Source of the DNA: a virus
Taxonomy: Duplodnaviria; Heunggongvirae; Uroviricota; Caudoviricetes
IMG/VR virus record: IMGVR_UViG_2850761752_000002
Direction: 5' to 3' (one strand)
Length of the DNA: 13,719 bases
The position numbers are program-made. The number at the start of each line of letters is the position of its first letter. Position 1 is the first letter of the stretch. Below, piece after piece: positions 9,001 through 12,000 of the stretch.

Positions 9001-12000
9001 GAAAAACGGCCTTGAACTGAAAGCGCCTGTAACTGATGACATCAGCAGAGCACTGGCTTTTGCCATTAAGTGGGTGGCGGTCGGTGTTGCTGTGTCCCCG
9101 ATGCTGTATGGGCTGGCAAAACTGGTCATTGCGTTGAAATCGTGAAGGGAGGATTAAGCATGTCAGACAAACTCATAACGCTGGCGAAGATCCTCTGTGT
9201 AATTGTCGGCATTTCATTTTCACTAATGCTGGTTGCTCTTTTTCTTTCCATGGCCTGGATGATGTTGTCTTCGTCGGGGCTGCTGGGGTGAACATAAACC
9301 GAATGCTTTCCGCGTTTACCGTTATTCTGCTGGTGGTCTGTGGTGCGCTGTGGCTGGCAACAGACCATTACCGTGATAACGCCATCACCTACAAAGCGCA
9401 GCGCGATAAAAAAGCCAGAGAGCTGGAGCTGGCAAACGCAACCATTACTGACATGCAGCAGCGCCAGCGTGATGTTGCCGCTGGTCGTAAGCGCCTGCGG
9501 ATCAACGCCACCTGCTCCGGTACCGTGCGTGAAGCCACCGGCACCTCCGGAATGGATAATGCAACCGGCCCCCGACTGGCAGACACCGCTGAACGGGATT
9601 ATTTCACCCTCAGAGAGCGGTTGATGACAATGCAGAAGCAACTGGAAGGGGCGCAGGAATATATCCGCACTCAGTGTATTAACTAGTATTTTTGTTATCC
9701 GGAGAATGCATGAAGAAATTACTGGTAACCGTAAAGCCTTTTCAGGGAACAATTCCGTTCCGTATTTTGCAGCGTGGTCGTGTTCTTGTTGAAGGTTCGT
9801 TCAGTGGTAAATGTACGCAATTACACTCCCGGACCTTTCAGGTGAATGCCACGAATGAAGAGCTAACCGTTGAGTGTACGATGAATGCCGCTAAATGCCG
9901 CATGGTATCCGCTGCATTACAGCCAGTGTGTTGAGCGACCTTATTAACCATGCGCGGTATTGTCGCCGTATCCCCGCATTAACAGAGACCGCAGCCCGAC
10001 CGGGAGACTCCTCTGCGCGAGTGTGCGGGGATAATCAAAAACGATACACACCGGGGTTTACCGCGTTAACGGAGCGCGGCGTTGTCCCCTCATGGTCGCT
10101 GGTCCGGTGCGATGGTGGAAGAAACCGGACGATGTGTTACCTCGCAAGCTCTGTTATGTCATGTGTCTGATTTGTGATTTAAGTCGGATAATTGTCGTTG
10201 CCATTAAGCAGAGGATTGATGACCGACAGGGTGGCATTGTTAGAATAAGACTTATTCTTATCTGTGCCGGGAATGAAAATGAAAAGAAACCTTCCGTTAA
10301 TTATTTTGTTGTCTTCTCTGGTTATGGGCTGTACGCAACATAAAACAGATATGCCCCGACAGTTGGTTAAGGCATTACCACAATATCCGGCCTATGCAGC
10401 GGCAAATTATATAAAGGGACGGGTTGATGTGAAGTTTGATATTGGTGCTGATGGTACTGTCACCCGAATTGAGTTTATCCGTTCAGAGCCGCACCATTTG
10501 TTTGATGAGCAGGTTGTAAAGGCGATGGCAAAATGGCGATTTGAGAAGGACAGGCCGTGTAAAGGCGTGAAGAAAACGTTTATCTTTAGTCCTTCTGCAC
10601 CCTGATTATTTCATCAGAAATTAATTATCACTCTGTTGTTATTCTGTACATCCCGGCAGGGTAAGTCTTGTTCCGTCGGATATGAAGATGAAATATTGTT
10701 GGAGGACAGTGGGTACCTGCTCCTGTAACCGAACGTTCATTTCTCGTTATTTTTCATGCTGGCCGGGCGCAGATGCGTTGCATCTGTTGCCAGCCTTCTC
10801 CTGCAGGCTTCAATAACCCACGCTGAAAAGTTTCCTGAACCTTTCAGATCAAGAGCGATGTTAATTTGTTCAATCATCTGGTTTGGAAATCGGATGTTGC
10901 GGGTTGTTGTTCTGCGGGTTCTGTTCTTTGATGACATAATGTTTCCCCATATTCAGTGTTGCTGATTTGTATTATCTGAAGTTGCTTTTACGTTAATTTG
11001 ATGCAGATCAATCAATACGATAGTAAGCGTCAACGGAGCACCGTATTGACGCTTATTTATTGGTGAGTGCTACGTTCCATGGCAGGAGTTCGTCAACACG
11101 GTTGGAAGGCCATTCCGGCAGTACGCTCAGGATATAGCGCAGATACGCTTCCGGATCGATACCGTTCAGTCGGCAGGTGCCGATCAGCCCGTACAGTAGC
11201 GCACCACGCTCTCCACCGTGATCGCTGCCGAAGAACATAAAGTTTTTCTTTCCGAGACAGACTGCACGAAGCGCTCTTTCCGCGGCATTATTATCCGCCT
11301 CAGCCAGACCATCATCACTGAAGTTGCACAACGCAACCCAGTGCTTCCTGATATACCGGAACGCATCTCTCAGACGGCATTTTTTCGATAACGTGTGTTC
11401 TTTCTCCTGCATCAGCTTATACAGGGAAGTCAGTAGCGGTTTACTCTGCATTTGCCTGACCGCCAGGCGTTCAGACACCGGCAACCCGCGTATTTCGTGC
11501 TCGATGGCGTACAGCTCACCGATTAGTTTCAGGGCTTCTTCCGCTGTCGCGCTTTTGGTACTGATATATACATCGTGGACTTTGCGCCGCGCATGAGCCC
11601 AGCATCCTGCTTCCGTCAACGCGCCGCCTTCTCGTTCGGCACTGAACAGCCGATCGTAACCATTAAACGCATCTGCCTGCAGGATACCCCGGAAGGGACT
11701 AAGGTGCTGCTCCGGATGTTTACCCTGATGGTCCGGTGAGTAGGCGAACCAGACCGCCGGAGGCTCTGGCGAACCGGCATTCCTGTCATCCCGGACATAC
11801 GTCCAGATATATCCTGTTTTCGCCTTCTTCCTGCCCGGTGCCAGCACTTTTACTGGTGTGTCATCAGTGTGAACTTTGCGGCTGTTCATTACATAACGGT
11901 ACAGAGCATCATTCAGCGGCGTCATTAACTGGCAGCACGCGTCAACCAAGTTGGAGAGTAATGCACGGCTCAGTTCGACACCCTGACGGGCAAAAATTTC

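Follow-up and report, generated by a model that had tools for sequence, protein, structure and literature searches.

A prophage gene for a predicted lipid-anchored TonB C-terminal domain, a possible outer-membrane decoy for TonB boxes, and its enterobacterial relatives

IMG/VR virus record IMGVR_UViG_2850761752_000002 (Caudoviricetes; 13,719 nt, the whole stretch analysed and referred to here as the window) is a decayed lambdoid prophage. Downstream of its lysis genes lies a gene whose product, judged by its sequence, is a member of the TonB C-terminal (TonB_C) domain family but not a TonB energy transducer. The best explanation for the gene is that it is an intact moron, that is, an extra cargo gene dispensable for phage growth, in a prophage that has otherwise decayed. 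A model reading the sequence alone had described the product as essentially a lipid-anchored TonB C-terminal domain (the original prediction), and this description is borne out by profile matches, alignment, a structural model and the lipobox. The function that we favour, with a probability of about 0.4, is that of an outer-membrane-tethered competitor for TonB boxes, which would exclude TonB-dependent phages and colicins. The features of the window are collected in Table 1.

The assignment to the TonB_C family rests on several profiles. The search with Pfam TonB_C (PF03544) proposed with the original prediction gave a significant match (E=1.3e-14; 54.8 bits against a cutoff of 24.6), and TIGR01352 matched at 54.5 bits (cutoff 27.1). 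The best NCBIfam matches are enterobacterial TonB equivalogs, aligned over their final ~80 profile positions only; those of the PRK10819 type score 49–74 bits, under their full-length cutoffs of 265–448. Comparison by phmmer with TonB chains of Escherichia coli and Salmonella in the PDB gave a gapless match with E=4e-16. Against residues 153–231 of E. coli TonB, 31 of 79 residues are identical (39%), again without gaps. Among the TonB residues kept are P161, Y163, P164, F180, G186, F202, W213 and F230, while the position of Y215 is occupied by Phe. Three further positions are changed, Q160 to Leu, R166 to Tyr and R171 to Tyr; a Tyr at the 166 position is typical of the family described below.

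An AlphaFold2 model, built from an alignment of 33 relatives, has a predicted local distance difference test score of 96–98 over the domain and shows the three-stranded sheet packed on two helices that defines the TonB C-terminal fold. Superposition on TonB C-terminal domains, also proposed beforehand as a check, confirmed the fold: Foldseek matched the model to 1u07, 2gsk_B and 2grx_C with a probability of 1.00, a root mean square deviation (rmsd) of 1.1–1.4 Å and template modelling scores of 0.88–0.91. The closest structures are those of receptor-bound TonB, namely 2gsk_B in complex with BtuB (1.1 Å) and 2grx_C in complex with FhuA (1.2 Å). Domain III of TolA shares the fold distantly in the same Foldseek comparison.

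The protein thus resembles the C-terminal domain of E. coli TonB (about residues 150–239; 1u07, 2gsk and 2grx) in its fold, its gapless identity, the YP motif, the aromatic core and strand beta3. The mature part comprises 91 amino acids, equivalent by extrapolation from the alignment to about TonB 145–235, and holds nothing besides the TonB_C domain and a tether. It ends short of the final ~4–8 residues of TonB, and Q160, R166 and R171 are replaced. Neither PF16031 nor a proline-rich region was found in it, unlike the true TonBs P0203, P0204 and P0206 included in the comparison. At the N terminus a cleavable lipoprotein signal takes the place of the inner-membrane anchor, so that the protein would be attached by lipid to the outer membrane rather than to the inner. 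Because both the transmembrane anchor and the proline-rich spacer of TonB are missing, it cannot couple to ExbB/ExbD or transmit force or energy.

The predicted signal peptide is typical of lipoproteins. In the numbering of the 108-residue product, the protein begins with MKRNLPLIILLSSLVMGC, comprising a basic n-region, a 12-residue hydrophobic core and the lipobox, and continues with TQHKTDM, a tether of about seven residues between the lipidated Cys and the domain. The PROSITE lipobox pattern, in answer to the signal-peptide check proposed earlier, is matched with Cys18 as the acylated residue (codon TGT at 10330–10332). The pattern is also matched by 32 of 33 family members, and the Cys itself is invariant (33/33 relatives). 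An Asp at position +2 is the established signal by which lipoproteins avoid the Lol pathway. The window protein has Thr there (codon 10333–10335), and relatives of 33–98% identity have Thr, Ser, Ala or Val, never Asp. This agrees with the earlier reading of the +2 Thr as favouring outer-membrane sorting, and the mature protein is accordingly predicted to be acylated and sorted to the outer membrane.

The gene had been placed at 10273–10605. It is indeed a single intact open reading frame on the + strand (10264–10605), with possible starts at GTG 10264, ATG 10273 and ATG 10279, but the second ATG is the likelier start. The allele of phage 21 has ATA where the window has ATG 10273, and keeps both ATG 10279 and the ribosome-binding site ahead of it (GGGAA in the window, AGGAA in phage 21). 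The start at 10279 is preferred on these two grounds, and the resulting 108 amino acids are also the length called by RefSeq and by the annotators of phage 21.

Comparison with the 72%-identical phage 21 allele gave a ratio of non-synonymous to synonymous substitution rates (dN/dS) of 0.13, at a saturating dS of 1.37. The gene is under purifying selection, and its intactness and the selection acting on it are far beyond chance. Close DNA matches were found in 417 of 5426 complete E. coli genomes, the identical full-length protein is present on at least 1000 contigs, and the 150 relatives on IMG/VR viral contigs are all near-identical E. coli copies. Older annotations of the protein as a 'partial tonB-like membrane protein' or 'TonB fragment' might be taken to mean a captured piece of tonB devoid of function. 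The low dN/dS at saturating dS, the retention of lipobox and domain across genera, and the spread of the exact sequence over so many contigs make such a dead fragment next to negligible as an explanation, and we consider it ruled out.

The gene is carried by Stx1a phages, phage 21 and E. coli prophages. In intact relatives (E. coli RM9387, JLK-2012 and phage 21) it occupies a constant slot on the late strand, after the lysis genes and before the terminase. The same slot is used in a Rahnella prophage (35% identity) and a Klebsiella phage (40% identity), so that with the two E. coli alleles four diverged phage lineages have the gene in this place. The original prediction had located it where lambda carries bor. 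It does lie in the same gap between Rz and cos/terminase, but on the strand of the late operon, and it is no positional replacement of bor, since phage 21 carries both genes, bor on the opposite strand. Lambda Bor/Iss is therefore comparable as a moron lipoprotein of the Rz-to-cos region of lambdoid phages, although it is non-homologous and oppositely oriented.

Position probably also explains the name under which the gene is filed in PHROG. The protein matches phrog_1267 (E=5.7e-43), labelled 'Rz-like spanin', and an outer-membrane lipoprotein encoded on the late strand after Rz might be thought to assist lysis or to serve as a spanin. However, the globular TonB_C domain resembles neither a short proline-rich o-spanin nor a u-spanin with its C-terminal transmembrane segment, and on this architecture the spanin reading was rejected. 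In addition, the gene is separate from Rz, about 590 nt past its end, phage 21 has an annotated Rz/Rz1 pair of its own, and many relatives are chromosomal with no lysis genes nearby. A role in lysis is thus highly improbable, and the label is almost certainly an annotation by position. A second PHROG match, to phrog_34172 (251 positions, unknown function), covers profile positions 163–242 only; this family may represent a longer phage protein with a TonB_C-like region at its C terminus.

How could a TonB domain tethered to the outer membrane act? In the FhuA–TonB crystal structure the TonB box pairs with strand beta3 of the C-terminal domain by beta-augmentation, as described in PMC11658791. 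Periplasmic TonB fragments (33–239, 103–239 and 122–239) inhibit the TonB system, an effect ascribed to blocked contacts between TonB and its transporters, according to the summary in bioRxiv 10.1101/2020.01.05.895219. We infer that the window protein retains the parts with which TonB captures TonB boxes, its YP region and the edge strand beta3, and that it would therefore occupy TonB boxes at the mouths of transporters. Held by its short lipid tether, a TonB domain uncoupled from energy would come to lie where TonB-dependent transporters open to the periplasm, and there it could bind the TonB boxes of the transporters, or those of incoming colicins, in competition with the real, energised TonB. 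A lysogen expressing it would then admit fewer TonB-dependent phages (T1 and phi80 types) and less of colicins B, D, Ia and M, at the cost of some siderophore and B12 uptake.

Llp of T5 and Cor of phi80 and N15 each block a single receptor; a protein of this kind would be their pan-TonB counterpart. Llp is described as an acylated lipoprotein of the outer membrane, bound to FhuA on its periplasmic face (bioRxiv 10.64898/2026.03.26.714494), and both Llp and Cor as phage lipoproteins whose block of FhuA comes from the periplasm (bioRxiv 10.64898/2026.03.26.714494; PMC11436027). The window protein would share with them small size, phage origin, outer-membrane lipidation and the action at the periplasmic face of a TonB-dependent transporter that is proposed here. 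Llp and Cor, however, act on FhuA only, and allosterically, whereas the window protein would target the shared TonB box. No relationship to either was found in Pfam, PHROG or the PDB, where only TonB families were matched. A fold search of the PDB (library to April 2026) returned at E≤1 only chains of TonB and TolA, the FhuA:Llp entry 8A60 not being among them. The BFVD collection of viral structures gave no match at E<0.001, and the defence-system models of PADLOC-DB gave a single match at chance level (E=0.022, 11.8 bits).

Two further systems offer partial parallels. The engineered periplasmic TonB fragments mentioned above are, like the window protein, energy-uncoupled C-terminal domains in the periplasm, and provide a dominant-negative precedent; they are soluble, artificial and identical to TonB, whereas the window protein is natural, lipid-tethered and 39% identical. 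FusB of Pectobacterium (7zc8 and 9hi3; model rmsd 1.6–1.8 Å) likewise has a TonB-type C-terminal domain with a specialised partner, but is a full-length transducer anchored in the inner membrane, not a domain on a lipid anchor only.

Exhaustive and profile searches uncovered a wider enterobacterial family with the same architecture of lipobox and TonB_C domain, of 104–133 amino acids, in Klebsiella, Pantoea, Erwinia, Rahnella, Enterobacter and Raoultella. Outside the E. coli clade, most relatives are chromosomal, each a lone gene whose surroundings are not phage-derived and differ from one locus to the next. A second type, found in Klebsiella aerogenes (P0140 and P0200, the latter at L017 3001–3513; also P0199 and P0201), has a lipobox followed by a linker of ~45 residues. 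Its domain is 62–65% identical to true TonB, with which it groups in a rough neighbour-joining tree. On this clustering the combination of lipoprotein signal and TonB_C domain seems to have arisen at least twice, the K. aerogenes type having apparently been captured independently and more recently.

Two isolated observations were made on relatives. The 953-kb plasmid p1 of Pseudomonas sp. T1-3-2 (locus L106) bears a truncated, 80-residue copy of the Pantoea type with a degraded upstream box, which points to horizontal spread past the Enterobacterales. In L015 (208–2739) the homologue P0181 adjoins a small integrase-family gene and a gene whose 360-residue product has a glycine-rich N terminus and a colicin domain of the pore-forming type; this neighbourhood was seen in one genome only and could be a coincidence.

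The regions upstream of the family members were scored against the Fur-box consensus GATAATGATAATCATTATC, as matches out of 19 positions. In the chromosomal relatives, palindromic Fur-box-like sites lie 18–50 nt 5' of the ATG and score at least 14/19 in 15 of 19 loci (Table 1). Within ten GTDB loci, any upstream box scoring at least 15/19 is the sole such site in its 6.3-kb locus, and the same scan, as a positive control, gave 17/19 at the phage 21 sitA promoter (L014 14494). The chromosomal relatives are therefore probably induced in iron starvation, which would argue that the ancestral role of the family is one wanted under those conditions.

The phage-borne alleles, by the same scan, lack a convincing Fur box. 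The window has a weak match at 10244–10262 (13/19, a score attained by 2–5% of shuffled sequences), and the best score of the phage 21 allele is 11/19. The AT-rich palindrome of the window to which this match belongs (Table 1) occupies the position that the strong Fur boxes have in chromosomal relatives; it is absent from the phage 21 allele. The window and phage 21 alleles do share, amid diverged sequence, the block ATTGT(T/C)AGAATAAGAC. A promoter belonging to the gene itself is possible, the conserved block being consistent with it, but the sigma-70 scan is at chance level. A sigma-70 match inside the gene on the opposite strand (10406–10433; TTCACA-16 nt-TATAAT, 11/12) is probably fortuitous, because its -10 falls on conserved N-Y-I codons and its -35 is unconserved in phage 21. 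The Rfam scan found no RNA family at or beside the gene.

These upstream sites bring in a different reading, in which the protein is a positive accessory of iron uptake, an outer-membrane-anchored TonB domain that aids TonB-dependent transport when iron is low. It could serve TonB's own C-terminal domain as a partner for docking at the outer membrane, or position periplasmic binding proteins at transporters, and on a phage it would be cargo for host fitness, comparable to sitABCD on phage 21. Besides the Fur-box-like operators, conservation of the aromatic residues F202, W213 and F230, with an aromatic Phe at the Y215 position, fits this reading; we take the first three to be implicated in how TonB's C-terminal domain dimerises. 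Against it, an anchored domain of this kind could not deliver energy, and we know of no positive role for any outer-membrane-anchored TonB domain protein; nor do the phage alleles have a convincing Fur box. We regard it as rather unlikely, but as the main rival of the decoy reading.

The presence of sitABCD, a TonB-independent importer of iron and manganese, might be counted in favour of the accessory reading. It is found in phage 21 (L014 10968–14417; phage 21 record 21967–25416) and in every other phage record that has the allele of the phage 21 type. The association is confounded by kinship, however: about 19 further sit-carrying phage records are without the TonB_C gene, and the Stx1a-type carriers are without sit. 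The phage 21-type carriers are closely related, shared ancestry accounts for the co-occurrence, and we count it as a lead only.

The conserved aromatic core, and the near-identity of the model to the TonB C-terminal domain, including its dimeric crystal forms 1u07 and 1ihr, would also suit a third mechanism, also directed against TonB. The lipoprotein would pair with the C-terminal domain of TonB, pin TonB at the outer membrane and so titrate a scarce transducer. The window protein, however, lacks the final ~4–8 residues of TonB, which presumably form the beta4 used in the 1u07 dimer. Heterodimerisation is thus quite unlikely, and its phenotype would be hard to separate from that of a TonB-box decoy.

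A role in the cell envelope apart from TonB traffic was also weighed, whether in serum resistance or adhesion, as for Bor/Iss or Lom, or as a peptidoglycan tether reusing the TonB/TolA fold. It would suit the classic moron region of lambdoid phages in which the gene lies, the distant kinship with TolA domain III, and the enrichment of carriers among Shiga-toxin producers (O103, O55:H7 and Stx1a phages) and Shigella-like strains. The closeness of the protein to genuine enterobacterial TonB, evident from its best NCBIfam matches, speaks against it, as do the Fur boxes of its relatives, which indicate iron, and the fact that phage 21 is already provided with bor. We consider a role of this kind very unlikely.

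Several points also weigh against the TonB-box decoy that we favour. The original prediction had suggested that the gene could shut down TonB-dependent uptake and so exclude TonB-dependent phages and colicins, and this simple idea is weakened by a family that includes ordinary chromosomal genes in Pantoea, Erwinia, Klebsiella, Enterobacter and Raoultella. The Fur-box-like operators tie the family to iron starvation and so complicate a pure shut-down, induction in iron starvation coming at the wrong moment for blocking TonB and iron uptake. For a lysogen, blocking TonB in general would come at a high cost. The replaced positions Q160, R166 and R171 are, we assume, receptor-contacting in TonB, so that the partner or specificity of the window protein may differ from that of TonB. 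The call of a promoter for the gene itself is weak, and from its place on the late-operon strand it may be expressed mainly in lytic growth. The carrier phages themselves are not known to use TonB-dependent receptors. The regulatory evidence thus points both ways, and the mechanism is a proposal. A more extended version, in which temperate enterobacterial phages repeatedly captured a Fur-controlled, outer-membrane-tethered TonB_C lipoprotein of the host as a pan-TonB-box decoy for broad exclusion, we regard as doubtful.

Table 1. Features of the window, and Fur-box-like sites of chromosomal relatives (L numbers are loci outside the window)
Feature	Position	Strand	Basis or remark
TonB_C lipoprotein coding sequence, 108 amino acids	10279..10605, including stop	+	Pfam, NCBIfam and PHROG matches; dN/dS
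TonB C-terminal domain, residues 26-104 of 108	10354..10590	+	Matches E. coli TonB 153-231
Predicted lipoprotein signal peptide, MKRNLPLIILLSSLVMG-C	10279..10332	+	PROSITE lipobox pattern
Putative ribosome-binding site GGGAA, 5 nt ahead of ATG 10279	10269..10273	+	AGGAA in phage 21, annotated there as ribosome-binding site
Promoter-like ATGACC-16 nt-TAGAAT, TG extended -10, 33 nt 5' of ATG	10219..10246	+	Consensus scan, chance level
AT-rich palindrome AGAATAAG-A-CTTATTCT over -10-like TAGAAT	10242..10258	.	Sequence
Integrase	1-1107		
Three transfer RNA genes and full-length match to small RNA STnc100 (139 bits)	3150-3396 and 3476-3666		Rfam
IS3-family element, two inverted copies, 100% identical	5349-6616 and 12452-13719		
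S21-type holin	7605-7874	+	Pfam, PHROG
DUF1327	7879-8223	+	Pfam, PHROG
Lysozyme	8274-8807	+	Pfam, PHROG
Rz spanin gene	9288-9686	+	Pfam, PHROG; compared with intact RM9387 Rz
YlcI/YnfO (DUF3950), usual downstream neighbour	10737..10937	-	Pfam, NCBIfam
IS66-family transposase in place of normal HNH and terminase	11053-12327	-	Gene order intact in RM9387, JLK-2012
Fur-box-like site, 17/19	L015		
Fur-box-like site, 16/19	L006, L010, L107		
Fur-box-like site, 15/19	L008, L100, L102, L105, L120		
Fur-box-like site, 14/19	L009, L016, L018, L099, L101, L104		

The prophage around the gene is extensively damaged. A DNA methylase gene is split by IS1, and the transfer RNA genes and STnc100 match lie between it and a truncated SASA esterase gene. 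The lysis module (7605..9686) is in the same late-strand block as the TonB_C gene, but its Rz has, by comparison with the intact 152-residue Rz of E. coli RM9387, an in-frame internal deletion of 25 amino acids flanked by the repeated sequence RQRDVAA. Owing to this deletion the prophage is probably lysis-defective. Rz, the esterase gene and the terminase region are thus all damaged, while the TonB_C gene is undamaged. The two IS3-family copies, each with an ALIL frameshift pseudoknot, bracket 6617–12451, which includes the lysis module and the TonB_C gene, and IS66-family fragments adjoin both (5012–5348 on the + strand and 11053–12327 on the - strand). This arrangement suggests a rearrangement, or a composite-transposon-like unit, around the lysis module and the TonB_C gene. 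Upstream of the gene, phage 21 and JLK-2012 share with the window a highly conserved block of ~200 nt (9950–10150), although the ~100 nt that separate the block from the gene have diverged. The block gave no Rfam match and holds no convincing shared reading frame.

The bare observation of a TonB-like phage protein is not new, since RefSeq and phage records already label it 'TonB family protein' or 'TonB C-terminal domain protein'. What is new is the wider enterobacterial lipoprotein family with its invariant lipobox Cys and the Fur-box-like operators on its chromosomal members. A full-text literature search found no functional study of the protein, no recognition of the lipoprotein family and no association with Fur boxes; the earlier statement that no system of this kind has been characterised agrees with this search.

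Siderophores and vitamin B12 enter the cell through TonB-dependent transporters, as do siderophore–antibiotic conjugates, many of the colicins and microcins, and phages of which T1 and phi80 are examples. If the lipoprotein blocks TonB boxes, it would represent a new and broad prophage-encoded form of exclusion or colicin resistance, present on Shiga-toxin phages and phage 21. As a pan-TonB decoy it would differ in mechanism from Llp and Cor, and would reveal that the host's TonB system has a modulator in the outer membrane that had gone unrecognised. If it promotes uptake instead, which is what the Fur boxes upstream of the chromosomal genes hint at, iron acquisition in enterobacteria would have a hitherto unknown component. 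A natural, lipid-tethered and energy-uncoupled TonB domain would also offer a simple tool for genetics, and an experiment made by nature on the way in which TonB locates its receptors and pulls on them.

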